23,195 nucleotides of DNA. Origin: a virus (lineage: Duplodnaviria > Heunggongvirae > Uroviricota > Caudoviricetes). This document shows, piece after piece, positions 2,475-19,007 of the stretch; the stretch's first letter is position 1; every line of letters starts with the position of its first letter. The notes below the pieces were generated by a model. The model saw only the letters and a list, made by a program, of their open reading frames with translations. It had not been told where the DNA came from and ran no database searches. Made by a program: the position numbers and the translations under genes. Where the stretch lies: positions 1 through 23,195 of IMG/VR virus record IMGVR_UViG_2713896904_000008. One strand, written 5' to 3'.

Positions 2475-2640
2475 TTGCCCCTGAATTTTGCCCCCGAATA
2501 AAATCCCCAAGATTCTACTATCCCATTTTTGCCCCTGAAATTCCGGGAAACAGTGATTTTGCCCCTCATTTTTGCCCCTGAAATGCCAATAATTGCCCCT
2601 GAAAATCTAATTTTTGCCCCTGAAATTTGCCCCCGAAAAG
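2475..2640. repeat. Array of 8 direct repeats of TTTTGCCCC(T/C)GAAA (iteron-like)
   Basis: Copies at about 2475, 2486, 2526, 2557, 2569, 2592, 2611 and 2626; same motif forms the left arm of the terminator at 5122-5146. Confidence 0.7.
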
Positions 2641-2773
2641 GATTGGTGAGAAAAACTCTTTATAAAACATTAACTTAGTGATTGGTGAAAGCGGGGGATC
2701 GGGCGTGCATAGATATTATATAACACATTCGCTACGCTCATGTGTAAAACCAAAAATAACCAAAAAGATATTA

Positions 2774-2793
2774 GGAGGGCTTTAGCCCGACTG
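2774..2793. repeat. 20-bp direct repeat ggagggctttagcccgactg, copy 1
   Basis: Exact match to 3164-3183. Confidence 0.7.
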
Positions 2794-3163
2794 CGCGAAG
2801 CGCCAACCAATTGCTTCTAGTAACAACTAATTTAAACTAGATGATACTAGATGGTCTTAGAAGGAATTAACTAGTTTGCTCGCTCGCTTCGCTCACTCTC
2901 AAACGTCTGCGACGCCACTGCGTGGCATCGAGAATCACTTTCGAAAGGATTTTCTTGAAAGGGATTTTAAACTAGTTACTAACTGATTCTAGTAAACGAA
3001 CGAAGTGAGTAACAATCACTTTCTAGAAAGGTATTGGTATCCCTTCGGGATTGCAACCTTCGGTTGCTAAATTGCTTCCTGATTATTATTTCTCCAAAAG
3101 AAAGATTCTTATATTCTAAAGATACTTCTTCGTTTTGGTGATGATTTAATCAAAATCTATGAA

Positions 3164-3183
3164 GGAGGGCTTTAGCCCGACTG
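3164..3183. repeat. 20-bp direct repeat ggagggctttagcccgactg, copy 2
   Basis: Exact match to 2774-2793; the two copies bracket a ~370-bp CTAG-rich, hairpin-rich ORF-free segment. Confidence 0.7.
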
Positions 3184-3271
3184 AATCCAATCACTTCCAA
3201 ATAGATAAAAAATTCTCGTTATAAATACTAGTGTAATTTGTTTGATTCACTTTCTTTTAGAGGATACCACT

Positions 3272-3724
3272 ATGATCAATACTAAAACTCCTTTCGTACT
3301 TCTGGGTCTGAACCATGATGATAATCTGGATATGATGCATGTTTTCGCTAATCGTGGTTATAACATCATTCGTCATTCCGAAGACTCCAATTTCTCAACT
3401 GCTTTCTATGCTCTTAAACGTAATGGTCGCCCTACGGTGATCGTAGACTGCTTTACTGATGAAGGTCGTGAACAATACAACAACATTCCGGCAATTATTG
3501 TTCGTGATGACCTGCCGTTTGATGTTCGTGAATATGACGTTGATTTAGGCTCTTACTATGGGATCGCCGATCTTGACCAGATTATGGCTGATTACGGTAA
3601 ACAACCCGCTCAGGAAGCCCAAGAACACGATGAAGAGGATGAGGAAAACGAAGACTACGCACCAATCTGTTTCTCTTCTCAGAATGGCTTCTACGGTTAC
3701 GATGAAGGCTTAGATATGCTGTAA
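3272..3724 (+). CDS. Hypothetical acidic protein (150 aa from ATG 3272; ORF track starts at TTG 3242)
   Basis: AGAGGA RBS 7 nt before ATG 3272; biased codon usage; C-terminal Asp/Glu-rich tail (QEAQEHDEEDEENEDY). Confidence 0.7.
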   Translation: MINTKTPFVLLGLNHDDNLDMMHVFANRGYNIIRHSEDSNFSTAFYALKRNGRPTVIVDCFTDEGREQYNNIPAIIVRDDLPFDVREYDVDLGSYYGIADLDQIMADYGKQPAQEAQEHDEEDEENEDYAPICFSSQNGFYGYDEGLDML

Positions 3725-3759
3725 GTTAGGTCAACCCTTTGGCGTCTTGTCAAGGGGTG

Positions 3760-3788
3760 TTGACAAAATTTTCTGACTTTTTTATGAT
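3760..3788 (+). promoter_or_regulatory. Strong sigma70-like promoter TTGACA-17-TATGAT overlapping a 7-bp inverted repeat (ttgtcaa 3747-3753 / ttgacaa 3760-3766)
   Basis: -35 at 3760-3765, -10 at 3783-3788, exact 17-nt spacer; a second TTGACA at 3797-3802 with a weaker -10. Confidence 0.6.
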
Positions 3789-3844
3789 TATCGCACTTGA
3801 CAATTTTGAACCTATTTGACCTAGATTTGTAAAGAGGATGTAAC

Positions 3845-4177
3845 ATGAAAGAATTTACCATCACTAAATCCCTGTATGACTGGACTGTTAAAATCTCCGG
3901 CAAAACCGTTTCTGTAAGCCCTAGCCATGTAGAAAATGATTGGGGCGTATCCCGTGAAACTATCTCCCGTAGTATGCATGTTCCGTTTGATCTGATGTCC
4001 TTAACTGGTATTCATGCAATGCTGGAAGTTCGCGAACAATTCGAAGCTGGTAATCACAATGCGACTCCAGTTAGCAATCACCTTCTTACTAATGAAGAAC
4101 GTGAAATCATCGAAAACTGGCGTTATGAATATGCGATTCCTTATTATGAAGAAGATCAGGTAGAAATCGATTGGTAA
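3845..4177 (+). CDS. Hypothetical protein (110 aa)
   Basis: AGAGGA RBS; biased codon usage; immediately downstream of the strong promoter. Confidence 0.7.
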   Translation: MKEFTITKSLYDWTVKISGKTVSVSPSHVENDWGVSRETISRSMHVPFDLMSLTGIHAMLEVREQFEAGNHNATPVSNHLLTNEEREIIENWRYEYAIPYYEEDQVEIDW

Positions 4178-4279
4178 TAAATTTCTATTATAAATAAAAT
4201 TGTTCCGCGCGCCGTTGGCGTGTGGACAGTTAAAAACAGGAGAATCAATCACTAAACCGTTTAAGGGGAATTTTTTACT

Positions 4280-5113
4280 ATGAATACTGTTACTACTATG
4301 AATACTGCTGTTAAAACTGCTTCCGTGTCTCTGGTTGTTGATAACACCAAACCGCTGACCATGTCTTCTCGTCAGATCGCTGAATTTACCGGAAAAGAAC
4401 ACCACAAAGTTAAAGTTGATATAACTAAGATGTTGAATGCTCTAGGTTATGAAGATCACGCGAAGTTTCGCGTCATCTATTTTGACCAATACGGACGCGA
4501 ACAAAACGAATATCAACTAGACGAAGAAATGACTCTGACTCTTGTCACTGGTTACGATGTTAAGCGTCGAATGGTTGTTATTCAGGAATGGAAACGACTG
4601 AAAGAAGAAAATGAAAAACTGCGTTCTCAGCAAGTCAACCCATACGCAAACATGACTAAGCTCGATTGGATTCGTGAGGCAATGGAATTGGAAGCCGCAA
4701 ACGAACAACTGATTCAAGAAAAGAAACAACTGGTTGAATTGCATGTTCGTAAAGCTATCGACACACACAGTCTTAGCCGCTTATTAGGCGAAAAACGAGG
4801 CTCTACGAAGGTACAAATTATTCTGAAAGGTTTATGTGCTGCTGGTGTTCTTGAGCGTCGTCTGGATGCTTCTGGTAAGCCTAAAGGCTATGATCTGCTT
4901 CCTCCTGGCTATATGTTCGCTCGTATGTCGGCACACGGTCAGATCGAGTTCACTGCTGATGCTATTCCGCATCTCGTAAAACTCGGATTGCTTGAAGAAG
5001 AAAAGGCCGCAACTTTGAAATTGCCACAGCCGAATAACTCACGAGCAATCGTCAATAATACTGCTTTGCTGATTCGTCAGAATGCTGGATCACTGGAACA
5101 CTTCGGACTGTGA
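4280..5113 (+). CDS. Rha-family phage regulatory protein / antirepressor-like (277 aa)
   Basis: N-terminal segment LTMSSRQIAEFTGKEHHKVKVDITKML resembles the Phage_pRha domain; C-terminal region resembles antirepressor (Ant/KilAC-like) domains; assignment by motif recall only. Confidence 0.65.
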   Translation: MNTVTTMNTAVKTASVSLVVDNTKPLTMSSRQIAEFTGKEHHKVKVDITKMLNALGYEDHAKFRVIYFDQYGREQNEYQLDEEMTLTLVTGYDVKRRMVVIQEWKRLKEENEKLRSQQVNPYANMTKLDWIREAMELEAANEQLIQEKKQLVELHVRKAIDTHSLSRLLGEKRGSTKVQIILKGLCAAGVLERRLDASGKPKGYDLLPPGYMFARMSAHGQIEFTADAIPHLVKLGLLEEEKAATLKLPQPNNSRAIVNNTALLIRQNAGSLEHFGL

Positions 5114-5121
5114 TAATTTTT

Positions 5122-5146
5122 GCCCCTGAATTTCAGGGGCTTTTTG
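5122..5146 (+). terminator. Rho-independent terminator (gcccctg-aattt-caggggc + TTTTT)
   Basis: Perfect stem and T-run immediately after the Rha-like gene stop. Confidence 0.7.
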
Positions 5147-5187
5147 TATCTGGAGTTTTTCGCCGAAAACCTGCAATACAGAATTTC

Positions 5188-5384
5188 GAAAGAATCAATA
5201 GGTTAGAGATGAGCGCAGTTTTGCGCCGATTGATTCAAGTTTGAATTTCTCGAAAGAATCAACCACTTAGATAGATACGCTGAACTTTAAGCACATCCCC
5301 TCAGTTTTGAGGGCATCTATAGATCAGTCCAAATCTGGACTCATCGGAAGAATCAATGACTTAGAGATGTGCTCAGTTTTGAGC
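5188..5384. repeat. Three copies of a ~40-bp unit (G)GAAAGAATCAA-N4-TTAGAGATG-hairpin, each hairpin with a conserved GTTT loop and covarying stem
   Basis: Hairpins gcgca-gttt-tgcgc (5213-5226), ccctca-gttt-tgaggg (5298-5313), gctca-gttt-tgagc (5371-5384); stems differ but stay complementary. Confidence 0.6.
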
Positions 5385-5390
5385 GGATAT

Positions 5391-5418
5391 AAAAAAGGCC
5401 AACCCCGAAGGATTGGCC
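5391..5418 (-). terminator. Minus-strand rho-independent terminator with UUCG loop for the leftward operon
   Basis: On the reverse complement: ggccaatcc-ttcg-gggttggcc followed by TTTTTT. Confidence 0.6.
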
Positions 5419-5425
5419 TAGAGAA

Positions 5426-5656
5426 TCAAATTCCTGTTGCTTCTACCATTTCACCATCAACCTGAACAAAGAATTTCAAATCAACTTTATGGAGTGATTT
5501 GTAGAATTGAGCGATTGAAATACCGTGTTCACTCAATACTTGCTCTTTTTCGGCTTTACCTTTCGGCGCTTGATAGTACGCTTTTACAATCGCTGCCAGT
5601 TGTTCACGATCAAAACGGCAAGGACGACCGCGAGTAGCTTTAGTAGTCATAGTCAT
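5426..5656 (-). CDS. Small putative HTH DNA-binding protein (76 aa; likely start at the internal ATG 5650)
   Basis: RBS GGAG upstream; N-motif TRGRPCRFDREQLAAIVKAYYQ and C-motif GISIAQFYKSLHKVDLK shared with 1784..1966 and 5685..6287. Confidence 0.6.
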   Translation of the reverse strand: MTMTTKATRGRPCRFDREQLAAIVKAYYQAPKGKAEKEQVLSEHGISIAQFYKSLHKVDLKFFVQVDGEMVEATGI

Positions 5657-5684
5657 TTCTCCAAATTAAAGTGAATGTTCACCT

Positions 5685-6287
5685 TTATTTAGAGGACTTA
5701 CATTTTATCGGAAAAAGTTCTCCATCGTCAATACTCATAAAGAACTCTGCCTTAATCCCGTACTTCTTCAACCGTGAATAGTATGTACCCCGACTTATAT
5801 CAACCTTGCGAAGCACTTCAAAGAACCCTTTAGGATCGTTGTAATAGTGGCTATAACGCACGTTAGCGAGTTCAACGAATAGTTCCCTTGTATCACCATA
5901 GCCTTTCTTGAAAGCCTCGTTACGATAGCGTGTAATTGCGTGATTCAATCTCTTCTGTTTCAACACTTCCCTGATCGGTGTCCACTGCAACCGATAGATA
6001 GGACCGTCATCCACTCGATAATAACGCTTGATATCAAAATCAAACCATTCACGGACTCTCTGGAACTCTGTCTGTGATGTTCGGTGCTTCTTAAAGAAGT
6101 TGTGAATATCTGTATATCCCTGATCGCGATACAACTCTATTAAAATTTGCTTCGCTTCCTCGCGACTAAAGCCGGATGTTGTGTAATCAGTCTTCTTGTG
6201 ATGGTGCTTAACTGGCAAACGATATTCATGATCGGTACAAGACAAGGCTAATTCTAATTCATCTCTTTCTTGCTGATTAATTAGCAT
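5685..6287 (-). CDS. Hypothetical protein (200 aa) carrying both paralog motifs separated by a ~100-aa insert; putative DNA-binding
   Basis: AGGGGG RBS; [16 protein letters not shown] and [17 protein letters not shown] match the motifs of the two small paralogs; divergent from the terminase gene. Confidence 0.65.
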
Positions 6288-6301
6288 ACAACCCCCTTTG
6301 A

Positions 6302-6329
6302 TTAATACCCGTATTTATCAAAATATCAA
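6302..6329 (-). promoter_or_regulatory. Candidate minus-strand promoter (TTGATA-16-TATTAA) for the leftward operon, in the divergent region with the terminase gene
   Basis: Read on reverse complement: -35 at 6324-6329, -10 at 6302-6307. Confidence 0.35.
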
Positions 6330-6372
6330 CAATTTAATAAATACCTTCATATTTCGTAATGAGGGTAATTAC

Positions 6373-8280
6373 ATGAAACTGATTTCGAACAAGGCCAAAT
6401 TAAAAAAGATTCTTAAAAATGCCGCAAAATATATCACTCCACCGCCTAAACTCCTTCCGTCTGAATGGTGCGAAGCGAATATGGTGCTGGTAGATGGTCC
6501 TCAAGCTGGGGATAAAGTTAAATTGTTGTCATTCCAAAAAGGCATGATTGATGCACCTTTCCTTGAGAACAAGAAAAAGTATGTTCTGATGACCAGTGCG
6601 CAGATCGGAAAGACTACCATCCTGAACGGTATCCTGTTTAACCAGATGGCTAACGATCCATGCAATATGATTATCGGACAATCAACCGCTAAAGAAATGT
6701 CTCAATATCTCGCGGGTAAGATCCGACCGTCTATCGAAGCATGTGATGCATTAAAAGACGTGGTTACAGACAAGAATGATCGCAATGCGGTTAACAACAA
6801 TAACCAGCTACAGCTAAAAACGAATCACTTCCTGTACATGGTATCGCTTACCAGTCCATCAACCCTACGTGGTAAGACCGCAAAGGTTGGATTGCTTGAC
6901 GAAATCGATGCTGCTACAGCCTCAGAAGAAGGTGATCCGGTGGCGCTGGCTGCTAACCGTTTAACTACCTTTGGCGATGAAGGTCGATTAGTCGTATCCA
7001 GTACCCCGACCAGTAAGCTCGGAAGCATTAACCAACAATGGTTATCAAGCGATATGCGTATGTTTTTTGTTCCGTGTCCTCATTGCGGTAGACACCAGGT
7101 GATCGAGTGGGAAAACGTTCAATTTGAATGGCGTAACATCGATGGTAAGAATTTACCCGATCCTGATACCGCTCGTTATATTTGCCCCCATTGTAAGAAC
7201 GCATGGACAGAAGGGGAACGAATCAGGGCAGTAGCGCAAGGCGAGTGGAGAGCAACCCGTGAAAGTGAAGTAGCAGGATTCTGGATTAGCCGTCTGTATT
7301 CACCTTTCAGCACGATCCGCGCTTGTGTGGTTGATTTTAGTCATGCGTGGCAATCCTTTGATTTACAATCATTTTATAACACCGTGTTAGGCAAGGTATA
7401 CGATGATCAGGACACGGCAGTAGAAGCAAATGAACTGGAAAAACTCAAAACAGATGTTTCTATCGAGAATATCCCTGATGACGTGATTTTCTTGTGCTCA
7501 GGAATTGACCAGCAATTGGATCGCGCAGAATCTACCATCTTAGGTGTAGCGAAAGATAAGGTTTACATTCTGGATCACCGTAGCTTTTACGATCATAACT
7601 GTGAACGATACGAATCACCTGTATGGGATCGTCTGGTTAACTTCAAGAAAACCAAATTCTATAACGTTAATGGTGAACGTGTGCCAATGCTCGCCAGCTT
7701 CCTCGATACATCAAACGGTCGATTCACTCAAGCCGGATACCGTATTTGTGGTAAGTGGAAGAACCTACACGCTATTAAAGGTAGTTCATCCGGTAATGCT
7801 CCAGTGATTCCGGTTAAACCTACCCGCACAGGTGGTCATGAATTGCTTATGCTGGGCGTTAACGTTGGTAAATCCGCTGTTCGTGAAATGCTGGTTAGAA
7901 ACCTGAAAGATAATCCTCATATTGGCTTAGAAATATCAGAAACCGTTCCTGATGATTATCTCGATCAGCTTTTGAGTGAATCCATCAAGCGTACTACTAC
8001 TGGTGTTCGTTGGGTGAAAAATCCAGGTAGTACCCGAAACGAGGCTCTCGACTGTCTGGTTTATAGCTATGCTGCTTCTCGCTACGTTCTTTCAAAAATG
8101 TCATGGGATAAACTCATTGCAATGAAAGACAGCTTAAACCGTGTTGTCGAAGAATCCGTAGAAGCTCATAAATCGCAATCTGACGAGCAAATCGAAGAAA
8201 CTAAGCCAAACCCACGACCACAGCGTCAAAACATCGCCAGACGTCCAAATAGAGGCCGTAGCTGGGTAACATCGTTCTAA
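6373..8280 (+). CDS. Terminase large subunit (lambda GpA-like), 635 aa from ATG 6373
   Basis: GAGGG RBS 7 nt before ATG 6373 (ORF track starts at 6298); Walker A-like [11 protein letters not shown]; size and position immediately upstream of portal. Confidence 0.85.
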
Positions 8281-8349
8281 TAACTCGCCGTCCTTCGGGG
8301 CGGCATCCCTAAATATTGTTAAACCAATAACAATTAAATAGGGGTAATT

Positions 8350-8844
8350 ATGAGTTTAGAACTAATTCCCTTAGTAATTCGTAAAGGCGAAAAAATCACG
8401 CTGGCGAATGAAGAGGGTGTAACAATTCAGGTAGGAAATAATAAAGGTATCATTTATCAGGTTGATGATTCTCCGGCTAATCACGAGATTAAAACCTTAG
8501 ATTTTGCCGAGGGTAAATATACCATCGTAATAACTTTGGATGATGAACTGGTATCAATGCAGGAATTGACTGTTTTGCCAGTATTCGCCAAACAATCCAA
8601 AAAAGAATATCTGCGGGAAACTATCGCCTTAATCGAGCAAGTTATTTTCGCCCGTTTATCTGGGGACGAAGCCGCATTATCTGCAATGACAATAAAGGGT
8701 AATTCCTTTGCCTATGAGTCATTGGGTGTTCTCCAGCAATTGAAGACTGATTATGAACGTCAGTTATCTAAAGTAATTCAAGCCGAACGACGTAAACAGG
8801 GAATTAGCCCGATTAAAAATATCAAATTACGTCTTACGCGATAA
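8350..8844 (+). CDS. Hypothetical head-morphogenesis protein (164 aa) between terminase and portal
   Basis: GGGGTAA RBS; synteny only, no recognisable motif. Confidence 0.55.
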   Translation: MSLELIPLVIRKGEKITLANEEGVTIQVGNNKGIIYQVDDSPANHEIKTLDFAEGKYTIVITLDDELVSMQELTVLPVFAKQSKKEYLRETIALIEQVIFARLSGDEAALSAMTIKGNSFAYESLGVLQQLKTDYERQLSKVIQAERRKQGISPIKNIKLRLTR

Positions 8845-8854
8845 GGGGTAAATC

Positions 8855-10366
8855 ATGTTTAATCTTTTTCGACGCAAAAAGGCGGTAGAAACTCCAGTTA
8901 AAACTAATCACCGCCAGCAACAACAAAAAATCTTTATCGACAAACAAGTAGAAAAATTCCAGAAAGATTTGTCTAAGCGTTCTTTGGGCTTAGTCGGTGA
9001 TCGCATTGATGGACAGCTTCAACAAGACACCATTACAGGAACCTTCAATAAGGCTCTCAAATCGAACGGTAAGCGCCTTTATGATCAGGGTCGTACTCTG
9101 GCTATAAACAATGCTGTAGGTAAGCGATACAAGCAGTATATCGTTGACCAAGTTGTTGGTACGGGGCTTGATCCGAAACCATCAATCGTTAAATCAAATG
9201 GCAAACTTGACACCGCACTGAATAAGCAGATCGAGAATGCTTTCTGGAAGTGGGCGCAGAGTGCTAAACGCTTCTCTCGCAACGGTCGCTTTAACTTCCG
9301 TGAAATGCTGGCAATGGCAGAATCTGAACGTGTTCAGGGTGGAGAATGCTTCATCGTTTTAACCAAAGAGAACAATGAGTTACAAGTTTCTATTCTGTCT
9401 GCTGATAGGTGCGACTGGTCGCTTAGTCGTGAAATAAGCAAAGAACGTGCGATCTATCAGGGGATTGAGTATGACGTAGACACAATGCGCCCTGTAGCAT
9501 ACTGGTTTAGAAAAATCAATCTACTGACTCAGACCTACACTGGCGAAAATTATCGCGTAGATGCTTCTCAGGTGTGCCACTACTACCAGCCACTGTGCGC
9601 GGAAAGTTTACGTGGTGTGACTGACTTCCTGCCAGTGATTAAGGATATTGCGCATCAAGAAGCGTTCCGCGAAACCGCGATCGTCCAGAAACGTATTGCG
9701 GCTAGTTCTATGGGCTTTATCGAACGTCCTAAAGATTCTGGTGACGATTTTGATACTGGTGAAGAGGATGAACAATATCAAGCGCCGGAAGTAGTACAGG
9801 ACTTTGCACCGGGTACTATTCAGGAATTGCCGGAAGGGGCAACAATCAAGAGCATTCAATCATCGCAAAATGGCGATGACTTTAACAGCTTCAATGATGC
9901 GATGTTCACTAGCGTATCAATGGGCTTAGGCGTGTTTAAACAGGGCTTGACTGGTGATACTAGCCAGATCAACTACTCAGCCGCACGTTTTGGTGATTTA
10001 ACTCAGCGTAACCGTGTTAAAGCACTGCAAAACAAATTAATTGAAACAGTGGTATTGCCAATTTTTGAAGCGTATCTACGCCATTATTCCGCGCGTGGTA
10101 TTGTTCCGATTCGTATTACTGCAATTCCGCATATTATCGATAATACAACTATTATTCGTCCGCGTTTTGAATCCGTCGATCCTATTAAAGACGTAAACGC
10201 CGAGATTGCTTTAATTCAAAATGGTCTTAAATCACGTACTGCCGTTATATTAGAACGTGGTGATGATCCTGAAAAAGTATTCTCAGAGATTCAAGCCGAA
10301 AAGAGCGCACTAAATATTATCGTTAATGGCGAGGGTGAAGAAAAAAATTCCCCAGCCGATCCCTAA
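8855..10366 (+). CDS. Portal protein (503 aa)
   Basis: Size, position after terminase, lambda-type portal-like composition; GGGGTAA RBS. Confidence 0.8.
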   Translation: MFNLFRRKKAVETPVKTNHRQQQQKIFIDKQVEKFQKDLSKRSLGLVGDRIDGQLQQDTITGTFNKALKSNGKRLYDQGRTLAINNAVGKRYKQYIVDQVVGTGLDPKPSIVKSNGKLDTALNKQIENAFWKWAQSAKRFSRNGRFNFREMLAMAESERVQGGECFIVLTKENNELQVSILSADRCDWSLSREISKERAIYQGIEYDVDTMRPVAYWFRKINLLTQTYTGENYRVDASQVCHYYQPLCAESLRGVTDFLPVIKDIAHQEAFRETAIVQKRIAASSMGFIERPKDSGDDFDTGEEDEQYQAPEVVQDFAPGTIQELPEGATIKSIQSSQNGDDFNSFNDAMFTSVSMGLGVFKQGLTGDTSQINYSAARFGDLTQRNRVKALQNKLIETVVLPIFEAYLRHYSARGIVPIRITAIPHIIDNTTIIRPRFESVDPIKDVNAEIALIQNGLKSRTAVILERGDDPEKVFSEIQAEKSALNIIVNGEGEEKNSPADP

Positions 10367-10411
10367 TAACCAACGGGGGCGCAATGCCCCCAATTAATTA
10401 AAGGTGATTAA

Positions 10412-12415
10412 ATGCTTAAATTTCGCCGCGATCTTAACGGTTACGGTGGAGTTATTAACGAAGGGCATAACGATCAATACGAATTTGAAATTGCTTTCTC
10501 AAGTACACAGCCTTATCAGCGCCAATTTTGGGATGAGCAAAATCAAGAAATGGTGGTATTAGATGAAATTCTGGTACATACACCGGAAGCGGTTGATCTG
10601 TCTCGTCTGAATAATAACGCTCCGTTGCTGTTCAATCATAATTTCGATAATCATTTAGGTGTAGTCTGCGACGCTCGAATCGATGCGGATAACGTAGGCC
10701 GTGCTCTGGTTAAATTCTCTAAGCATGGCACTTTGGCTAATGATGTTCGTAATAAAGTCATTGAAGGTACGATGGAAAAAATTTCTGTCGGCTATGACAT
10801 TAAAGAATATCACATCGATTACGCTAAAGGACAATTGATTGTTACTAAGTGGGCACCCTTTGAAATTTCATTTGTGACAGTTCCTGCTGACGATTCGGTC
10901 GGTTTAAATCGCTCTCTAAATACTATCACAGTTAATTTGGAGGCTAAACGCGATATGACTAAAGAACAAATCGAACAAGTTAAAGACGAAGAAAAAGAAG
11001 TCGCTCAGGTTGAAGAAACTCCGGTAGAAGAAAATAAAGAACCGGAAGTAGAAGAAACTCAAGAGCGCCAAGTTGAAGAGAATAAAGAAGATGAAAATCT
11101 CGAAGACGGAAAAGACGCTGAACATCCTGAAAGTGTTGATGATGATAGTTCAACTGTTCGGGAAGCAGAAGAAATAAAAGAAGAACGTGAAGCTGCTCCG
11201 GTTGAAGAAGAAAAAATCGAGGAAGTGGCTGAACGTTCCGAAGAAGACGAATTAGAAATTCGCGAAATTGCACGCGAACTAAATATTGATGACGAAGAAT
11301 TGAAACGCGCATTGGCAAATAAAGAAATGACGCCGGAAGCATTCCGCACTAAGGCACTAAATAACATTACCAATGCTCAACGTAATAACGAACAAATTAA
11401 GGACTCTAAAATGGAAAAAACTTTTGACCTGAACAACGTAATTCGCTCTCTGGTAGATGGTGAAGCTCTGGGTGCTAACGAAGCCGAGTTTTCTGCAATG
11501 GCTGCTACTGCAACTATGCAGCGTGGTCGTGCTGCTCGTGGTGGCTCTGTATTCGTTCCGGCTGCTGCTATGCGTGCTGCTGCTGCTGGTAACACCAAAG
11601 CCGATCTGACTGCTATCACCGACGAAAAACTGATGACTGAATCCTACATCGAAATGCTGATGCCGGAATCTGTTCTGGGTCGTCTGGGTGTGACTGTTTA
11701 CAGTGGCTTGAATGCTCCGACCGCTATTCCAAAAATGACTAAATCCAGCGTTGATGCTTTCGGCTTCGTTGATGAAAACGGTGCTGCGCCAGAAAGCAAA
11801 GCTGAATTTGCGAACGTGAAACTGTCTCCTAAGACTTTCGCTGGTGGCAACCCGATCAGCCGTCAGAGCATTAAAACCGTTCCGGGTATCGCTACCCTGA
11901 TCACTGATCACATCAACCAGGCCGTTCGCATCAAACTGGAACAACTGATTCTGTCTGACAAAGCTAACGATCGTGGTCCGGATGGTCTGGTTAAACAACT
12001 GGTAGACGCTAGCCGTGTTACTAAGAAAGCCGCTTTCAGCTACAAAGACTTCCTGAAAGAAATTGCAGCACTGACTGATGCTGGCGTTCCTGCTCAGGCG
12101 ATCAAGTTTGCAATGAGCGGTGCAACTGCTGCTGAACTGGAATCTACCCTGAAAGATAACGGCGTTTCCGGTTATATCATCGAAAACGGCAAACTGGCTG
12201 GTTACGATGTAGTTACTTCTGGTGTTATTCCGGCAGACCACATCGTTCTGGGTGACTTCTCCGGTATCACTATCGGTGAGTGGGGCGGTCTGGAACTGGA
12301 TATGGACGACACTACCTACCGTGCACAGTCCGCTATCGTTCCGCGTATCTGGGTAGATCTGGATTATGTTGTTACTCAGCCGGAAGCTCTGAAAGTTCTT
12401 CACATCTCCGAATGA
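10412..12415 (+). CDS. Prohead protease - acidic scaffold/delta region - major capsid protein fusion ORF (667 aa)
   Basis: N-terminal ~170 aa with prohead-protease-like LLFNHNFDNHLG ... ISVGY motifs; Glu/Lys-rich acidic middle (res ~190-330); Ala/Gly-rich capsid-like C-terminal domain with extreme codon bias; stop TGA. Confidence 0.8.
   Translation: MLKFRRDLNGYGGVINEGHNDQYEFEIAFSSTQPYQRQFWDEQNQEMVVLDEILVHTPEAVDLSRLNNNAPLLFNHNFDNHLGVVCDARIDADNVGRALVKFSKHGTLANDVRNKVIEGTMEKISVGYDIKEYHIDYAKGQLIVTKWAPFEISFVTVPADDSVGLNRSLNTITVNLEAKRDMTKEQIEQVKDEEKEVAQVEETPVEENKEPEVEETQERQVEENKEDENLEDGKDAEHPESVDDDSSTVREAEEIKEEREAAPVEEEKIEEVAERSEEDELEIREIARELNIDDEELKRALANKEMTPEAFRTKALNNITNAQRNNEQIKDSKMEKTFDLNNVIRSLVDGEALGANEAEFSAMAATATMQRGRAARGGSVFVPAAAMRAAAAGNTKADLTAITDEKLMTESYIEMLMPESVLGRLGVTVYSGLNAPTAIPKMTKSSVDAFGFVDENGAAPESKAEFANVKLSPKTFAGGNPISRQSIKTVPGIATLITDHINQAVRIKLEQLILSDKANDRGPDGLVKQLVDASRVTKKAAFSYKDFLKEIAALTDAGVPAQAIKFAMSGATAAELESTLKDNGVSGYIIENGKLAGYDVVTSGVIPADHIVLGDFSGITIGEWGGLELDMDDTTYRAQSAIVPRIWVDLDYVVTQPEALKVLHISE
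11411..12415 (+). CDS. Major capsid protein translated from an in-frame internal start (334 aa), nested in the fusion ORF
   Basis: AAGGA at 11399-11403, 7 nt before in-frame ATG 11411; codon usage switches to highly-expressed type (ctg, cgt, ggt, gct, ccg) from about this point. Confidence 0.5.
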   Translation: MEKTFDLNNVIRSLVDGEALGANEAEFSAMAATATMQRGRAARGGSVFVPAAAMRAAAAGNTKADLTAITDEKLMTESYIEMLMPESVLGRLGVTVYSGLNAPTAIPKMTKSSVDAFGFVDENGAAPESKAEFANVKLSPKTFAGGNPISRQSIKTVPGIATLITDHINQAVRIKLEQLILSDKANDRGPDGLVKQLVDASRVTKKAAFSYKDFLKEIAALTDAGVPAQAIKFAMSGATAAELESTLKDNGVSGYIIENGKLAGYDVVTSGVIPADHIVLGDFSGITIGEWGGLELDMDDTTYRAQSAIVPRIWVDLDYVVTQPEALKVLHISE

Positions 12416-12553
12416 ACTAACGTAGAACCTTCTGAACCTTCCCCCGATTTGGGGGAAGAAAATCTGATTCCATCTCAGGAAGAAGAATCCCAGACGGTTA
12501 CGGCGAAAGCCACAGCTAAAAAGGCGGGTCGTCCGCCGAAAGCAAAAGAATAA
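12416..12553 (+). other. In-frame open extension after the capsid TGA stop (45 codons: TNVEPSEPSPDLGEENLIPSQEEESQTVTAKATAKKAGRPPKAKE, then TAA TAA); candidate readthrough segment
   Basis: Hand translation in the capsid frame shows no stop until 12551-12553; perfect 8-bp hairpin cttccccc-gattt-gggggaag at 12438-12458. Confidence 0.45.
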
Positions 12554-12558
12554 TAATT

Positions 12559-12586
12559 AGCCCTGCCTAACGGTGGGGCTTTTTTG
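12559..12586 (+). terminator. Rho-independent terminator (agccctgcc-taac-ggtggggct + TTTTT)
   Basis: Stem with G-U pairs and T-run; same terminator family as 18458 and 19731. Confidence 0.75.
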
Positions 12587-12616
12587 TATGTAAATACTCC
12601 ATAAAAGGGGGTAACT

Positions 12617-12907
12617 ATGTTCAAATTATCAGAATCACAATTAAATCGAATGTTTAAGAGTGCTCCTGTTTTTGTCGTGGAAGGTGGTAAATCAATTCGT
12701 GCTTACCATGAAATTACTACTACCGACGAACAAGGGGTATGGACAGAATCAGAATTCTTATTCTGTCGTGAGGGAGATTTAAAGCAAGGTGATATTGTCA
12801 TTGTAGAAAATCAGCGTTTCAAAGTTCAATACATTAAGCGCAATGGTGACAATACCAGTGATTGCTTTATCACTTTAGCAGGGGGTGCTCATGCTCGCTA
12901 CCGTTAA
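12617..12907 (+). CDS. Putative head-completion / head-tail adaptor protein (96 aa)
   Basis: GGGGGTAA RBS; small ORF directly after capsid gene; synteny-based. Confidence 0.5.
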   Translation: MFKLSESQLNRMFKSAPVFVVEGGKSIRAYHEITTTDEQGVWTESEFLFCREGDLKQGDIVIVENQRFKVQYIKRNGDNTSDCFITLAGGAHARYR

Positions 12908-13313
12908 TAATATGCCACGTCTTAAGATTAAACGTGCTTTACAGGATATTATCGAACAAGATCTAGGTCTGGCTTTAAACGTAGAACAAACTCAGCAAGG
13001 CTTTAGTGATGACGTGGTTTGTTGGATCACCGGAATGAATGAGACTTACAATAGGGTCCGTGGCGGTAATGCAATGCAAGCTGAATGCGTTATCGAAATG
13101 CAATTGTATTCTCAGATTCATGAAACCAAAATTCATGAGGGTATTTGCCAGATAATCCAGATTCAGCCAGATAACCCACGTTTTAAAGATTTGGGCTTCG
13201 CTATTTCAGATATCACTCCAGTAGCCTCTAATACCGATTATGACGACGATTCTAGTGATGGGGGTATCGTTGGGACACTTAGCCTTAAATTTTCTTATCT
13301 AGCGCGTTTTTAA
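12891..13313 (+). CDS. Putative head-tail joining / tail completion protein (141 aa from ATG 12891; ORF track starts at GTG 12885)
   Basis: AGGGGG 5 nt before ATG 12891; 17-nt overlap with upstream gene suggests translational coupling; synteny-based. Confidence 0.5.
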   Translation: MLATVNNMPRLKIKRALQDIIEQDLGLALNVEQTQQGFSDDVVCWITGMNETYNRVRGGNAMQAECVIEMQLYSQIHETKIHEGICQIIQIQPDNPRFKDLGFAISDITPVASNTDYDDDSSDGGIVGTLSLKFSYLARF

Positions 13314-13322
13314 GGGGTAATA

Positions 13323-14156
13323 ATGAATATTACGCATGATAACTTAGATATTTTTACGGGATCACATGTTGAAGTGTCGATCTCTAACCAGCTAGACAAT
13401 CAGGTCGACTTTTTCGATCCTAGCTTTAGTTCTATTGAGAACATCGCAGCATTCCCTACTCTAACCGAATCCACAGAGATAGAAACTCTGGAAGAGTATG
13501 ATCATGATGCTACTGGTAAGCTGGCTGGCTATCGCAAACTTGAACCGACTACGCTCACAGTAAACCGTGTTCTGGATGACGAACATCAAGCAATGTTGAT
13601 GAAAGCGGTAGAGGATAAAACACCTTTACGCTTCCGTATGTTCTATGTTGTGAACTCTGGCTATAGTGCTGCTAACACTGGTTACTATGTCATCTATGAT
13701 GCTTACGTCACATCACACAAAACCCGTGGTAGTGATAACAAAGCTGTAACACTGGAATTCAAACTTGAACCAGATGGCGGGATTCTTGCAAGGGGTATAG
13801 CGACCGAGGGAAAACTCATCCGACAAGGGGATTTTGGCGTAGGCTCAGGCGTTAGCCCATTCACCGGACCTATTGATAGTGAATCTCTGACAGGAAACCG
13901 CTTTGTAACCTACAAAGGAACGGCCAGCACTAACCCTTATGGTGCTGATACATCGTTAATTCATCTTCAAGCTAATGAGCATGGCGCATGGCAATTAACG
14001 TGTAATACTTCCGGTGCTCCACGTTTGCGGGTACGAAATATTCAGGACAACGGAAAATCGGAATGGATTAAAGTCTATACAACAAACGAGAAGCCTACGC
14101 CAGCCGAAATTGGCGCAGTGGCTAAGACGGACCGGATCGATTTCGGTGAGTATTAA
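13323..14156 (+). CDS. Tail-tube-fold paralog of the major tail protein with a C-terminal tail-fibre-like domain (277 aa)
   Basis: N-terminal ~150 aa align by eye with ORF 17865..18341 (DIFTG; FP-T; TLTVN; KA-ED-T; YYV; TG-; EF-); C-terminus IKVYTTNEKPTPAEIGA matches tail-fibre segment YKMYHEGDKPTPGEIGA. Confidence 0.65.
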   Translation: MNITHDNLDIFTGSHVEVSISNQLDNQVDFFDPSFSSIENIAAFPTLTESTEIETLEEYDHDATGKLAGYRKLEPTTLTVNRVLDDEHQAMLMKAVEDKTPLRFRMFYVVNSGYSAANTGYYVIYDAYVTSHKTRGSDNKAVTLEFKLEPDGGILARGIATEGKLIRQGDFGVGSGVSPFTGPIDSESLTGNRFVTYKGTASTNPYGADTSLIHLQANEHGAWQLTCNTSGAPRLRVRNIQDNGKSEWIKVYTTNEKPTPAEIGAVAKTDRIDFGEY

Positions 14157-14186
14157 GATTGCGTACCTAAATAAAACATGAACGTT

Positions 14187-14212
14187 GGGAGGTTAACGCC
14201 TCCCTTATTCCT
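14187..14212 (+). terminator. Candidate terminator hairpin (gggagg-ttaacg-cctccc + U-rich tail)
   Basis: 6-bp GC stem followed by ttattcctgtttta. Confidence 0.4.
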
Positions 14213-14233
14213 GTTTTATAGTGAGGTGATTCG

Positions 14234-17200
14234 ATGCAGTCGATCCAATTTAAACGCACACAGACGGCTGGTAAAAAGCCAACGCCGGAACAATTACAGG
14301 TCGGTGAAATCGCTATTCAGATGGCAGACCATGTAATTTATACCAAAGATAAAAATAACGCAGTAGTTCAAGTAAGTGTTTCTCCTGAAAGTCATAATGC
14401 TTTAAACACAAAAGTAGACAATAACAAGAAAACTACTGATGCGACTATCGCGGCAAATAAAACCGAAGCTGCTAACGCTCTGGCTACCGCTAAATCTGAA
14501 CTGAATAACACGATTAACACGAAAGATACAGCGACCAATAAGCGCATTGATGCTACTAACACCACTGTTAGTAACTTAACCCAGACAGTTACGGCAAATA
14601 AAACCGACGCTGACACCAAGATCAATAACCTTACGGGGACAGTTGCATCTAACAAATCAGCTATTGAAACTACAGTAGCTAATAACAAACGAGATGCGGA
14701 CAATAAAATCGCAGCTTTAACCACGACGGTTAATGACAATAACACCGCGATTAACAACAAAGTTAATACCACTAACACCAACGTTAGCAACTTAACTAAA
14801 ACTGTTACTGCAAATAAAACCGATGCAGATAACAAAATTTCTAGCTTAACTAGCACGGTTGCAGCTAACAAAACAGCGATTGAAAAGGTCGTTTCCGACA
14901 ACAAGAAAGATGCTGATACTAAAATCAGTAACCTTACAGGGACGGTGAATAGCAACCATACCGCTATTAACGCAAAGGTTGACAAAAACAAAACTGATAC
15001 TGATTCAGCGATCGCAGCCGCTAACCGTCGAATTGATTCTATTGAAGGTAGTAACGATGCTCTTTACATCAAGAAGAATACCAACACTTATCATCACGGC
15101 TATTTGTTAACCAAAACAGCTAACTATCTGGAAGACCAGACATCACGAGATCTTAACTACTTTGGTGCTTTCCGAACTAATGGACAAGATGGACTCATGG
15201 ATCTAACTCTTAATGTTCCTCATTCTGCCGGTAAAGCGCACGGTCGCGGATTTACTTTCCGTTATGCGTCTGGTGGATCTCGTGTTGAAACCTATGGTTT
15301 TGATAGAGAAGGACAGAAGAACTTTAGCTATAAGATGTATCACGAAGGTGATAAGCCGACTCCTGGCGAAATCGGTGCATACACTAAAGCAGAAGTTGAC
15401 AAGATGTTTGTTAAAAACGTCACTATGTCTGTTCCTAATTCTAGCGAAAACGTATCTGCATATTTCAAATTGGCAACCGCAACAATTCCACAAAACGGGC
15501 GTAGTGTGTTTTTCCGTATTCATGGTGGTAATGGTTACAACGTTACGGCATATGACCAAGTTGATGTAGTAGAAATTCTTCTCCGTAGTGGTAACGATAG
15601 ACCTAAAGGACTTAACGTAATTGCATACCGTAGAAATACAAACAAAGATTTTGAGGTATTTGCTGTCAATACTTCCGGTGATAACTATGATATCTACGTG
15701 AAATATCAGCGTTATACCGATAACGTTATTGTCGAATATGGGAAATCTGTTTATGTAAGTTTGACGGTTTATGATACGCCGGAAGCCACGTTAATTAAAC
15801 CTTCCGTTGGTGTTATCGGTGGTCGCAACGTAACTCTTTTTAACACAGAAAATAAACGTGGTGTGTTGAGTTTTGACGACAATACACAAAACAGCTATGA
15901 CATTGTTCATCTAAGCAATGATAGAGGTACTGGACGGAAATATATTCGTAAATTCCGTAGCAACTATAACGAAATGATCTGGCATGAGACTGTTCAAGGT
16001 AATACATATCGATTGGCAACCGGAACGACTGATGCATCGGAAGTTTTTAGAATTACTAGTCGCACCATGTTTACTGGTAAAGGTGTATTTGATGCCGGAC
16101 AAAACGTTCTTAGATTAGAGCGTCCTAGCAACCAATCAAACTATATTGAATGGCAAGACCGCCGAAATGGTGCTGATGCTCGTCAAGGTTGGATCGGTTT
16201 TGGTGGTGCTGAAACAAATAACTTTCAATGGTATAGCGATCAAGGAAAAAACTCATTCCTGTTGGATGCTAATGGTCAATGCTCTATTATTACTGGTGCA
16301 ACAAAAATTGTATATACCAACGGTGAATATTGCTCTGGCAACTCTAACGCATATCGTATGGCATTTGGTAACTATGGCGCATTCTGGCGTAATGACGGCA
16401 CTAAAGTTTATCTGTTGTCTACTGCTGAAAACGATAAGTTGGGCGGCTGGAATACTTATCGACCATTCATTTATGATTTAACTTCCGGTAACGTTCAATT
16501 AGGCGGTGATGGTAACGAAGATGCATTAACGTTAGAACGTGCTTCTCGTGCCGCTCGCTTTAGTAATGACGTTTACATTAAGAAAGGGCATTTGACTTTC
16601 GACGCTGGACGATTAGGATCTCGTGATTTCTTTAAAATCAACCATTGGGGTGATAGCAATAACGCCCGTGATAACATTTTGCAGTTTGAAGACAGTCAGG
16701 GCGCACATTTTACCACTGAACGTGCTATGGGTACTGGTAACATAACAGCACGTTTTAAAGGCTTTGTTCGTGTTGAGTCTGGTGAGATTGCATTTGATGC
16801 TAATCGGGGGTCGCAGTCTCAATTCACCTTACACACATGGGGTAACGAGCAACGCAAACAGGTTTTTGAATGTAAGGATGCTACAAGTTATCACTGGTAT
16901 ACTGAACGTACTCAGGGTGGCACTGGACCTATTCTGTTCGCTATGGCGGGTAGTCTAAACGTTGCTAGCAATATCACAACAACTGGTGCTGATATTACGT
17001 TTAAACGCGCTGGCAATAAGCACATCTGGTTTAGAGATCCAGACGGTTTAGAGTTAGGCTTGATGTACTGCGATGATGCTGGTGCTATTCGCTTCCGTGG
17101 TCAGAAACAAGCCCAGACGTGGAAACTTGCGGATAAGATGATTCATCTTGAATCTGGTAGCGTCGGCGGGTCTGATAAAGGTTTGATTCGTGGTAACGTT

Positions 17201-17809
17201 TCTGGTGGTAGTTGGGCTAGCTGGCGTGACCGTGCTTCCGGTTTACAAGTTGATTGTCCTCAATCAACCGATTCCGCTCATAACATCTGGAAAGCGACTC
17301 ATTGGGGAAAATATCATATTGCGGCAATGGGTGTGCATGTTCCTGGCGGCACTATAGGTAATGCTATGGCACGTCTAAACGTAAATGACGCCAACTTTGA
17401 CTTTAACGCTGCGGGTGATTTTAGCGCAGGTCGTAACGGTAGCTTTAACGATGTTTATATTCGTTCTGACCGTCGTCTGAAAGTTAATCTGGAAGAATTA
17501 AAAGATGATGCTTTAGAGAAAGTAAACTCCCTGAAAGTCTACTCATACGATAAAGTTAAGTCTCTTAAAGATCGTAGTGTGATTAAACGCGAAGTCGGTA
17601 TTATTGCTCAGGATCTTGAAGAAGTATTGCCGGAAGCAGTAGGTATTCAATCCACCGAAGATCCAGAAAATCCAGAAGCAATTAAGACTATTTCTAACTC
17701 CGCTGTTAATGCCTTGATTATTAAAGCTATTCAGGAAATGGACGCCAAATATAAAGCCCAGATCGAAGCATTACAGAAAGAAATTGCCGAACTCAAAGCA
17801 ACTAAATAA
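14234..17809 (+). CDS. Long tail fibre protein with C-terminal intramolecular chaperone / self-cleaving domain (1191 aa)
   Basis: N-terminal KRTQTAGKKPTPEQLQVGEIAI anchor-like motif; 72-aa tandem repeats; C-terminus SDRRLK ... GIIAQDLEEVLPEAV resembles the chaperone domain of phage T5 L-shaped fibre and endosialidases (Ser-Lys dyad motif). Confidence 0.85.
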   Translation: MQSIQFKRTQTAGKKPTPEQLQVGEIAIQMADHVIYTKDKNNAVVQVSVSPESHNALNTKVDNNKKTTDATIAANKTEAANALATAKSELNNTINTKDTATNKRIDATNTTVSNLTQTVTANKTDADTKINNLTGTVASNKSAIETTVANNKRDADNKIAALTTTVNDNNTAINNKVNTTNTNVSNLTKTVTANKTDADNKISSLTSTVAANKTAIEKVVSDNKKDADTKISNLTGTVNSNHTAINAKVDKNKTDTDSAIAAANRRIDSIEGSNDALYIKKNTNTYHHGYLLTKTANYLEDQTSRDLNYFGAFRTNGQDGLMDLTLNVPHSAGKAHGRGFTFRYASGGSRVETYGFDREGQKNFSYKMYHEGDKPTPGEIGAYTKAEVDKMFVKNVTMSVPNSSENVSAYFKLATATIPQNGRSVFFRIHGGNGYNVTAYDQVDVVEILLRSGNDRPKGLNVIAYRRNTNKDFEVFAVNTSGDNYDIYVKYQRYTDNVIVEYGKSVYVSLTVYDTPEATLIKPSVGVIGGRNVTLFNTENKRGVLSFDDNTQNSYDIVHLSNDRGTGRKYIRKFRSNYNEMIWHETVQGNTYRLATGTTDASEVFRITSRTMFTGKGVFDAGQNVLRLERPSNQSNYIEWQDRRNGADARQGWIGFGGAETNNFQWYSDQGKNSFLLDANGQCSIITGATKIVYTNGEYCSGNSNAYRMAFGNYGAFWRNDGTKVYLLSTAENDKLGGWNTYRPFIYDLTSGNVQLGGDGNEDALTLERASRAARFSNDVYIKKGHLTFDAGRLGSRDFFKINHWGDSNNARDNILQFEDSQGAHFTTERAMGTGNITARFKGFVRVESGEIAFDANRGSQSQFTLHTWGNEQRKQVFECKDATSYHWYTERTQGGTGPILFAMAGSLNVASNITTTGADITFKRAGNKHIWFRDPDGLELGLMYCDDAGAIRFRGQKQAQTWKLADKMIHLESGSVGGSDKGLIRGNVSGGSWASWRDRASGLQVDCPQSTDSAHNIWKATHWGKYHIAAMGVHVPGGTIGNAMARLNVNDANFDFNAAGDFSAGRNGSFNDVYIRSDRRLKVNLEELKDDALEKVNSLKVYSYDKVKSLKDRSVIKREVGIIAQDLEEVLPEAVGIQSTEDPENPEAIKTISNSAVNALIIKAIQEMDAKYKAQIEALQKEIAELKATK
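14558..14990. repeat. Two tandem ~216-bp repeats (72 aa each, with ~14-aa sub-periodicity TVTANKTDADxKIxxLTxTV) in the fibre shaft
   Basis: NTTVSNLTQTVTANKTDADTKI at residue 109 and NTNVSNLTKTVTANKTDADNKI at residue 181. Confidence 0.7.
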
Positions 17810-17864
17810 TAAAAGTCGGGGGACTAGTTCCCCCGTAATAACAATTTAATTAAGGGGTAATTCT

Positions 17865-18341
17865 ATGTCTCAGCAATTTAAAGATATTTTTACTGGTGGT
17901 CTGGTAAGTCTGTTCTATCACGCCGATACCACTAACACCAATCTTGCACATGAAAGCTATGAAGAAATTAAAGAGTGTGCTGGTTTTCCTGAAACTGGTA
18001 TCGAGCGCGGTACTGTAGAAGTTAAATCCTTCTCTTCTCAGTATAACCGTAAACTGGTAGGGAAGCTGAACGTTCCTGATCTGACTCTGACCGTTAACTA
18101 CATCCCAGGCGATGCGGTACATGAAAAACTGATCAAAGCTGCCGAAGACGGTACTCGTATTCAGATTAAAGTAGAATATTACGTTGACGCAGCAAAACAG
18201 ACTGGTATTCGCACCGCTTTCAACGGCTTCATTTCTAAAGTTGCTATGAACGGTGGCGATGAAGAAGTGGTAACTAAAGAGTTTACCTTTGCAGTGGACG
18301 GCAAACCGCTGAAACAGGAAATCTTCAATACTGCCTCTTGA
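17865..18341 (+). CDS. Major tail (tube) protein, 158 aa
   Basis: Position immediately upstream of chaperone/tape-measure genes; strong codon bias; GGGGTAA RBS; stop TGA. Confidence 0.75.
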   Translation: MSQQFKDIFTGGLVSLFYHADTTNTNLAHESYEEIKECAGFPETGIERGTVEVKSFSSQYNRKLVGKLNVPDLTLTVNYIPGDAVHEKLIKAAEDGTRIQIKVEYYVDAAKQTGIRTAFNGFISKVAMNGGDEEVVTKEFTFAVDGKPLKQEIFNTAS

Positions 18342-18452
18342 ACTTTCGAAGAACAACCCCAGCCAATTCAAGATGAACCTACGGTGATTCCAGAATTAGA
18401 GGTTGTTACGGCGAAAGCCACAGCTAAACGAAGCCGCAAGGCTAAAGATTAA
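18342..18452 (+). other. In-frame open extension after the major tail TGA stop (36 codons: TFEEQPQPIQDEPTVIPELEVVTAKATAKRSRKAKD, then TAA); candidate readthrough segment
   Basis: Hand translation; shares the 24-nt block gttacggcgaaagccacagctaaa (peptide VTAKATAK) with the capsid extension. Confidence 0.45.
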
Positions 18453-18457
18453 TTATA

Positions 18458-18486
18458 AGCCCTGCCTTAATGGTGGGGCTTTTTTA
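18458..18486 (+). terminator. Rho-independent terminator (agccctgcc-ttaat-ggtggggct + TTTTT)
   Basis: Same stem sequence as the terminator at 12559. Confidence 0.75.
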
Positions 18487-18500
18487 TTGGAGTAATAAAA

Positions 18501-19007
18501 ATGGCAAATGTCGTTAATAAGCCCGGCTGGGTCGGATCATCGGCTGTTTCTGTAACTGGCAAGAGATGGATGCGTGAGGCTATGCAAGCGTTAAAAGTTG
18601 GTGTTCCTGGTAATATGAGCGCGATGTGTGGTCGTGGTATGGATACGGTTGTAGCTACTGCTGCATGGTCTACTTCATTGGGTAATAACTGGGGTGTAAC
18701 TGCTTCAAACTATCCAGTAACTGACATGCGCGGTAAAGGATCTATGGAGAACCCCGAAAACGTGGGCGTAGGGCGTCTGATTGGCGTTATCGTTGGTCAA
18801 TTCAATGGCGGTACTCCTACTATGGCTGTATATCTCCAGAACGGTAGAGCGGGGAATATAACCGTTAATTTGGGTGGTGCTGCTGTCACTGTTCCTTATA
18901 ACAGTATGCAAAGTGGTTTTCATTACTACTGGTTAAGCAATCCTCCGGCTGCTTTCCTCAATAACATTAAGAAGACTGGCACTAAGCAGACTTTGAAAAT
19001 CTCATAA
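18501..19007 (+). CDS. Hypothetical Gly-rich protein (168 aa); moron-like insertion between major tail gene and tail chaperone
   Basis: Own RBS (GGAG) directly after a terminator; codon usage (aga, ata, tta, gga, ggg, agt) differs from the flanking highly biased structural genes. Confidence 0.55.
   Translation: MANVVNKPGWVGSSAVSVTGKRWMREAMQALKVGVPGNMSAMCGRGMDTVVATAAWSTSLGNNWGVTASNYPVTDMRGKGSMENPENVGVGRLIGVIVGQFNGGTPTMAVYLQNGRAGNITVNLGGAAVTVPYNSMQSGFHYYWLSNPPAAFLNNIKKTGTKQTLKIS

Follow-up and report, generated by a model that had tools for sequence, protein, structure and literature searches.

Organization of the fused protease-capsid gene

The stretch of DNA analysed here (23,195 nucleotides, positions 1 to 23,195 of IMG/VR virus record IMGVR_UViG_2713896904_000008, Caudoviricetes; hereafter the window) belongs to an Escherichia prophage. 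Its head module is comprised of genes for a large terminase, a small head-tail protein and a lambda-type portal, followed by a single open reading frame (ORF) of 667 codons and then by further head-tail genes and tail genes. The ORF, which with its flanks is read on the plus strand, encodes an HK97-type prohead serine protease followed, without an intervening stop codon, by an acidic linker and a capsid protein of HK97 fold (Table 1). It also contains start signals and a codon-usage pattern that point to translation from nested in-frame starts, which is the subject of this report.

The original prediction for this locus, made from the sequence alone, was of one 667-codon ORF with protease-like, acidic and capsid-like parts, and was borne out by Pfam matches and by the composition of the linker, in which Asp and Glu make up 36% of the residues. 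The Peptidase_S78 match to residues 40-162 has E=8e-11 (42.8 bits, cutoff 21). The candidate catalytic residues His76 (10637-10639) and Ser125 (10784-10786) are assigned this role by analogy to HK97 gp4, and neither varies among the 22 diverse family members aligned. The Phage_capsid match (PF05065) covers residues 410-664 with E=7e-26 (91.7 bits, cutoff 24.2). The profile of PHROG 617 spans the whole ORF (E=5e-92, residues 23-663 against positions 26-621 of 626 in the profile), and the ORF also matches PHROG 4523, annotated as "major head and protease protein". Judged by its domain content, the presence of both domains in one uninterrupted ORF after the portal gene is the known protease-capsid fusion architecture. 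The same architecture is found in PHROG 617 and 4523, in the Rhodobacter RcC phages (PMC8601537), in small-genome actinophages, where it was named a "protease-scaffold-capsid fusion" (PMC7302621), and in Pseudomonas phage PAJU2, whose product is presented in PMC8306868, citing earlier work, as an autocatalytically cleaved "capsid polyprotein".

The 667-residue product is identical to that of an Escherichia albertii record (P0001), and about 55-60 of the 5426 complete E. coli genomes contain chromosomal copies with 80-95% nucleotide identity. A megablast search of the ORF against the phage collection gave no DNA match, relatives there being seen at the protein level only. The gene order terL, portal, fused ORF is common to the window, Escherichia phage DCP80 and E. 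coli prophages.

Table 1. Features of the fused protease-capsid gene and its immediate flanks (positions in the window)
Feature	Coordinates	Strand	Remarks
Shine-Dalgarno (SD) sequence of the first start, ATG 10412 (AAGGTGAT)	10401-10408	+	Read from the sequence; duplex with the extended 16S 3' end -10.8 kcal/mol
Fused ORF: protease, acidic linker and capsid precursor	10412-12415	+	667 codons, ATG start; full-length product 73.6 kDa
HK97-type prohead serine protease domain (Peptidase_S78), residues 40-162	10529-10897	+	Pfam match
Acidic linker / scaffold-like region, residues 176-333	10937-11410	+	158 residues, 36% Asp+Glu, pI 4.26
Site A: GGAGG (10939-10943), 11 nt, in-frame ATG 10955 (codon 182)	10939-10957	+	Protease/linker boundary; SD duplex -9.3 kcal/mol
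Family-conserved linker motif EIREIARELNIDDEELKRALANKEMTPEAFRTKAL	11255-11359	+	Family alignment
Site B: AAGGA (11399-11403), 7 nt, in-frame ATG 11411-11413 (codon 334)	11399-11413	+	Proposed main start; product of 334 residues, 35.3 kDa
Predicted propeptide, about 65 residues (334-398)	11411-11605	+	Homology to phage R4C; putative cleavage
Conserved FDLNNVIRSL-type motif inside the predicted propeptide	11423-11452	+	Kept across the family alignment
HK97-fold capsid protein core, residues ~399-667, ~28.7 kDa	11606-12412	+	Pfam and PDB 8gta matches
Intrinsic-terminator-like hairpin and T run	12559-12590	+	Sequence scan; ~150 nt 3' of the ORF, just 5' of the next gene

Codon-usage step and internal start signals

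Codon usage changes abruptly inside the ORF. The E. coli codon adaptation index (CAI), calculated with weights after the Sharp and Li table, is 0.363 over codons 1-333 and 0.739 over codons 334-667. With Glu and Lys left out, as their preferred codons are also the AT-rich ones, it is 0.28 for the protease, 0.28 for the linker and 0.73 for the capsid part. A change-point likelihood test, which uses no reference codon set and is independent of these weights, peaked at codons 330-340 with a log-likelihood ratio (LLR) of 69.9, values within 1 unit of the maximum extending over codons 326-340; the null LLR from 300 synonymous-codon shuffles had a mean of 29.8, a standard deviation of 3.8 and a maximum of 41.5. 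Preferred codons, counted with a set of our own choosing, account for 125 of 247 (51%) before ATG 11411 and for 241 of 282 (85%) after it (Fisher P=2e-18), and the share of Leu encoded by CTG rises from 5 of 21 to 25 of 27. The G+C content is 0.40 in the first half of the ORF and 0.50 in the second.

The anticipated coincidence of this switch with an AAGGA motif and an in-frame ATG at 11411 (site B) was confirmed, since codon 334 lies within the interval given by the change-point test. Among the 12 internal in-frame ATGs of the ORF, an SD-like duplex of -5 kcal/mol or lower precedes only three, at codons 182, 334 and 631, and a rough estimate gives a probability of about 5% for such an SD-preceded ATG (SD-ATG) to be separated by no more than a few codons from the change point. 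The surroundings of ATG 11411 are the least structured of the 13 in-frame ATGs scored, with a minimum free energy of -2.7 kcal/mol over 71 nt and a mean unpaired probability of 0.67. Met334 is present in 120 of 120 close homologues, which have four different upstream peptides. Among closely related E. coli prophages, 10 copies were compared at this site (the window itself, L002 and L004-L011); in all of them AAGGA stands exactly 7 nt before the ATG, and this spacing is unchanged while the peptide upstream differs, being IKDSK-M or INKEQI-M (attAAGGActctaaaATG and aatAAGGAacaaatcATG).

Among the structural genes of the window, a high CAI outside the capsid part is seen only for the gene of the lambda-like tail tube protein (0.60; Phage_TTP_11, 17865-18341); the portal, terminase, tape measure and fibre genes have values of 0.31-0.36, and most genes of the window fall between 0.22 and 0.45. 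With the capsid part and the tail tube as the most biased structural genes, codon bias appears to follow protein abundance in this phage and may be used as a proxy for it. Under translation from a single start all codons of the ORF would be read equally often, which leaves no ground for a difference in codon selection between its halves; since the capsid and tail tube proteins, the two most abundant virion proteins, are also the most biased, the step is hard to explain under equal translation. The high CAI after codon 334 and in the tail tube gene fits an excess of the short product, as far as codon bias, a proxy only, can indicate it.

A second candidate start (site A), which the original prediction had overlooked, lies at the protease/linker boundary, and initiation at its ATG would give a linker-capsid product of 486 residues and 53 kDa. 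Met182 is present in 120 of 120 close homologues, and in the lineage of the window no codon-bias step is found at this position, the CAI being 0.28 on both sides. Two of the prophage copies, L002 and L011, lack the site-A ATG, yet have kept both the ATG and the AAGGA of site B together with the step there.

Predicted capsid precursor and its maturation

Among solved structures, the capsid of roseophage vB_DshS-R4C (PDB 8gta) is the only relative detectable by sequence (E=1.1e-24, residues 409-661). The R4C gene encodes a fusion of 629 residues, of which the virion chain comprises residues 362-629 only, and the start of this chain aligns to residue ~399 of the window ORF. By homology, the 334-residue product is probably a precursor rather than the mature capsid protein, whose N-terminus would lie near residue 399, and a propeptide of about 65 residues is probably removed at maturation. 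Because this removal is predicted, a mature N-terminus generated by proteolysis elsewhere than at residue 334 is to be expected under nested starts and under a single polyprotein alike. The R4C capsid has T=7 symmetry, with 415 copies of a subunit of canonical HK97 fold (PMC10276861); the protease part and the expression of the gene are not discussed in that paper.

Start signals and codon usage in relatives

Database searches found no closer capsid relative outside fused ORFs, so that the difference in codon bias appears to have persisted inside fused genes and not to have been imported recently. Of the relatives with hosts of the E. coli type, DCP80, whose protein is 43% identical, has its change point at codon ~177-179, next to an AAGGA placed 6 nt before an ATG (Met 179 or 180); a second AAGGA and ATG are found at codon 321, and the CAI climbs in two steps over the three parts of the gene, from 0.27 to 0.48-0.51 and then to 0.65-0.66. 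Phages ECOO78, Arya and Persinger, with hosts of the same type, have an SD and ATG at the protease/linker boundary (codons 215-217), near their change points.

At least 576 fused homologues were confirmed in IMG/VR, of which 80 were fetched and the 74 complete ones analysed, with positions counted in codons after the VPAD motif of the protease and with 56 clusters formed at 60% identity. In these 74 homologues the density of SD-preceded in-frame ATGs is 22-24 per 1000 codons in the zone +15 to +45, compared with about 3 elsewhere (an approximately 8-fold enrichment), and 61% of the ATGs in that zone have an SD, compared with about 15% elsewhere. An SD-ATG is present in the zone in 53 of 74 loci and 44 of 56 clusters, where control windows of equal size gave 7-8 clusters. 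A smaller second peak at +150 to +180, the position of ATG 11411, involves 27 of 74 loci (20 of 56 clusters). A significant change point was seen in 25 loci, 22 of which have an SD-ATG somewhere in the ORF; the median distance of the change point from an SD-ATG is 14 codons, 86 being expected (P=0.002).

Taken together, the enrichment of SD-ATGs and the proximity of the change points make nested starts look like a property of the family, and point to their presence in most of its members. It is site A, not site B, that is conserved family-wide for SD-preceded ATGs, and the lineage of the window looks like a variant whose downstream site is the dominant one.

Several candidates for stand-alone capsid genes were considered and rejected. 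The 73%-identical relatives of P0171 are fused ORFs of 636 residues, so that this entry probably reflects a gene call that is truncated or internal; the relatives of P0196 match the fused phages ECOO78, Arya and Persinger; and the look-up of P0212 and P0255 gave no loci.

The fused genes are also modular. In L002 (2440-4458, E. coli ETEC1718) and L011 (412-2424, CFSAN061761) the same linker and capsid part follow a protease module that is clearly different. Their junction at the protease/linker boundary (around codon 180) indicates an exchange of domains, as modules, inside a single ORF. In L100 (1995-4520) the fused ORF reaches 841 residues, of which about 250 form an additional N-terminal domain before the protease, showing that the single-frame module can be extended. 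Within the linker, which as a whole has a ratio of nonsynonymous to synonymous divergence (pN/pS) of 0.60, codons ~201-260 (11012-11191) show a pS of 0-0.05 among 8 prophage copies, compared with 0.1-0.4 in the flanks; these near-zero values could reflect recombination, a recent sweep or nucleotide-level constraint. The DCP80 sequence (L001, PQ671644) is a 141-kb record filed under Straboviridae/Gaprivervirus, which carries the window-like terL-portal-fused capsid module at its left end (1-13765), and the record may be chimeric.

Proposed expression of the fused gene and alternative explanations

We consider it likely that the ORF is translated from nested in-frame starts, giving a minor fusion of 73.6 kDa and a major capsid precursor of 35.3 kDa. 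The two products of the original prediction are thus supported indirectly, by the change point, the kept SD spacing, the low structure around ATG 11411, the CAI of the tail tube gene and the relatives, with the amendment that the 334-residue product is probably not the final capsid protein. From these features we infer the following use of starts, product ratio, assembly and cleavage. Few ribosomes would initiate at ATG 10412 and produce the 667-residue fusion; with no stop codon behind the protease domain, all protease would have to come from this fusion. Many more would initiate at ATG 11411 and produce the 334-residue precursor, with the N-terminal peptide (f)MEKTFDLNNVIR, while a third product, consisting of linker and capsid, may arise from ATG 10955. 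Long and short forms would co-assemble via their shared capsid domain, and the few long subunits would bring protease and linker inside the procapsid, since the N-termini of HK97-fold subunits face inwards. The protease would then cut off itself, the linker and the ~65-residue propeptide from all subunits, leaving a mature capsid protein of about 269 residues. More tentatively, and as a possibility rather than an expectation, we propose that most of the genes described as encoding "polyproteins" are nested genes with two or three products, in which the choice of start sets the ratio of protease to scaffold to capsid; the dominant start would have moved, lying at the protease/linker boundary in most lineages and at the linker/capsid boundary here, where the shell would consist mainly of scaffold-less subunits with a minority of long ones.

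Several observations weigh against translation from nested starts with site B as the main one. The SD of site B is the weakest of the three candidates, at -5.8 kcal/mol compared with -10.8 for ATG 10412 and -9.3 for ATG 10955. A significant change point was found in only 25 of the 74 homologues, and family-wide no association was found between codon use in the linker and the presence of a site-A SD-ATG (P=0.63). Unfused capsid genes starting at site B, suggested by matches of 341-349 residues, had to be dropped as evidence. Among the prophage copies, pS is higher in the capsid part (0.33) than elsewhere (0.09-0.18), the opposite of the lower value expected in a highly biased part; the locus being mosaic, this test was uninformative, and the same mosaicism means that part of the compositional contrast could be historical.

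The most probable of the alternatives is a single polyprotein, in which every subunit would be made as the 667-residue fusion from ATG 10412 and cleaved autocatalytically, site B would be unused, and the step would be a relic of a once-separate, highly expressed capsid gene or a by-product of recombination. This is how the PAJU2-type (PMC8306868) and actinophage (PMC7302621) fusions are interpreted in those publications, and it agrees with the locus being mosaic (the swapped protease module of L002 and L011, the uneven pS along the gene), with the stronger SD of the first start and with the difference in G+C content between the halves. We nevertheless regard it as unlikely. A relic should have faded, but the step is retained in homologues that are only 40-43% identical and all fused; the SD spacing stays constant while the peptide changes; SD-ATGs are enriched about 8-fold at domain boundaries across 56 independent clusters; and initiation should still be expected even at a relic ribosome-binding site, given the unstructured stretch around it. 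In addition, 415 copies of an internal part of ~44 kDa would, by our rough estimate, take up about half of a T=7 procapsid.

Two further explanations retain internal initiation and differ in where or how it is achieved. ATG 10955 could be the important internal start, with a major 486-residue linker-capsid product resembling HK97 gp5 with its delta domain and only minor use of 11411; the family-wide conservation of this position, the strength of its GGAGG duplex and the invariance of Met182 among close homologues speak for it. That the codon step lies at 334 and not at 182, that a spacing of 11 nt is long for an SD, and that L002 and L011 have site B but no ATG at site A make it improbable for the window. 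Least probable in our judgement is control at the RNA level, by which an internal promoter or RNA processing would provide a shorter mRNA that begins in the linker and is translated from 11411. It has a parallel in herpesvirus UL26.5, which is known to have its own promoter, and a terminator-like element follows the capsid ORF; a crude consensus scan, on the other hand, found no sigma-70-like promoter on the plus strand in 10000-12800. As a shorter mRNA would still require initiation at 11411, it would modify translation from nested starts rather than replace it.

Comparison with known systems

In lambda C/Nu3 and herpes simplex virus 1 UL26/UL26.5, one frame gives a minor long product bearing the protease and a major short product, and the C-terminal part shared by both targets the protease into the procapsid. 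A minor long and a major short product from one frame were also found, by ribosome profiling, for gp17/gp17.5 of the haloarchaeal virus HFTV1 (10.64898/2026.09.13.751334). The window ORF is similar to all three in having an internal in-frame start inside a longer protease ORF. The C/Nu3-like nesting that had been suggested for it, extended into the capsid gene, holds as far as the internal in-frame start with its ribosome-binding site is concerned, but the ORF is not a strict member of this group: C/Nu3-type systems share the scaffold between the two products and encode the capsid protein in a separate gene, whereas here the frame runs through the capsid protein without a stop, and the main internal start would be the one at the linker/capsid boundary, so that the abundant nested product would be a capsid precursor.

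With HK97 gp4/gp5 the ORF shares the protease family, the capsid fold and (as predicted here) the removal of an N-terminal capsid part by the protease. HK97 has two genes, its protease being packaged via a C-terminal targeting tail, whereas no stop separates the two proteins in the window. The putative propeptide on the major product is about 65 residues long, compared with the 103 residues of the HK97 delta domain. R4C likewise has a fused gene, with a strong SD and ATG at codon 189 that corresponds to site A; it differs, at ~29% identity to the window protein, in lacking an SD-ATG at the position of site B. In the lambda literature of the 1970s, X1 and X2 were reportedly covalent fusion products of gpC and gpE, present in small numbers in the prohead, formed post-translationally and later questioned; they are similar in joining protease to capsid protein, the difference being that the fusion in the window is encoded by the gene.

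The fusion architecture itself is already known, and the new part is the evidence for nested starts in a fused protease-capsid gene. In PMC7302621, PMC8601537 and PMC8306868 the fusions are treated as single polyproteins and an internal start is not mentioned, and no report of internal initiation in such a gene was found in the literature searched, subscription journals being mostly outside the search. If nested translation is correct, a fused gene would avoid placing one protease and one scaffold on each of ~415 subunits in a large class of tailed phages, and the maturation protease would be packaged simply, by riding on a few capsid subunits. Such genes would then need two or three coding features in annotation instead of one "major capsid protein". 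More generally, an intragenic step in codon bias combined with an SD and ATG could then serve to flag nested genes from sequence alone.

Other features of the window

A GC-rich hairpin (GGGGGCGCAATGCCCCC) is located at 10374-10392, between the portal gene and the capsid ORF and about 10 nt before the SD of the latter. The ORF is followed by a spacer of about 200 nt (12416-12616), which contains a further hairpin at ~12440-12460 besides the terminator-like element with its hairpin at 12559-12580; the latter could lift the level of the capsid mRNA above that of the downstream genes. No Rfam family was found in the window. A tRNA-Gln of 91 nt called by ARAGORN on the minus strand (13078-13168) is probably a false positive in view of its length and its position inside ORF 12885-13313 on the opposite strand.

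ORF 710-1669, on the minus strand, encodes a protein of 318 residues that gave a weak coiled-coil-like match only and has no Pfam or PHROG family; with a CAI of 0.62 it may be a highly expressed accessory gene. The siphovirus tail module contains a T-even-type long tail fibre set (13323-19007). In ORF 13323-14156 a tube-like domain at the N-terminus is joined to a C-terminal part that is fibre-like, ORF 14234-17809 shows ~84% DNA identity over 15113-17740 to gp37 of RB49-like phages, and ORF 18501-19007 encodes a gp38-like adhesin (PF21721), the tail tube gene being located between the gp37-like and gp38-like ORFs.

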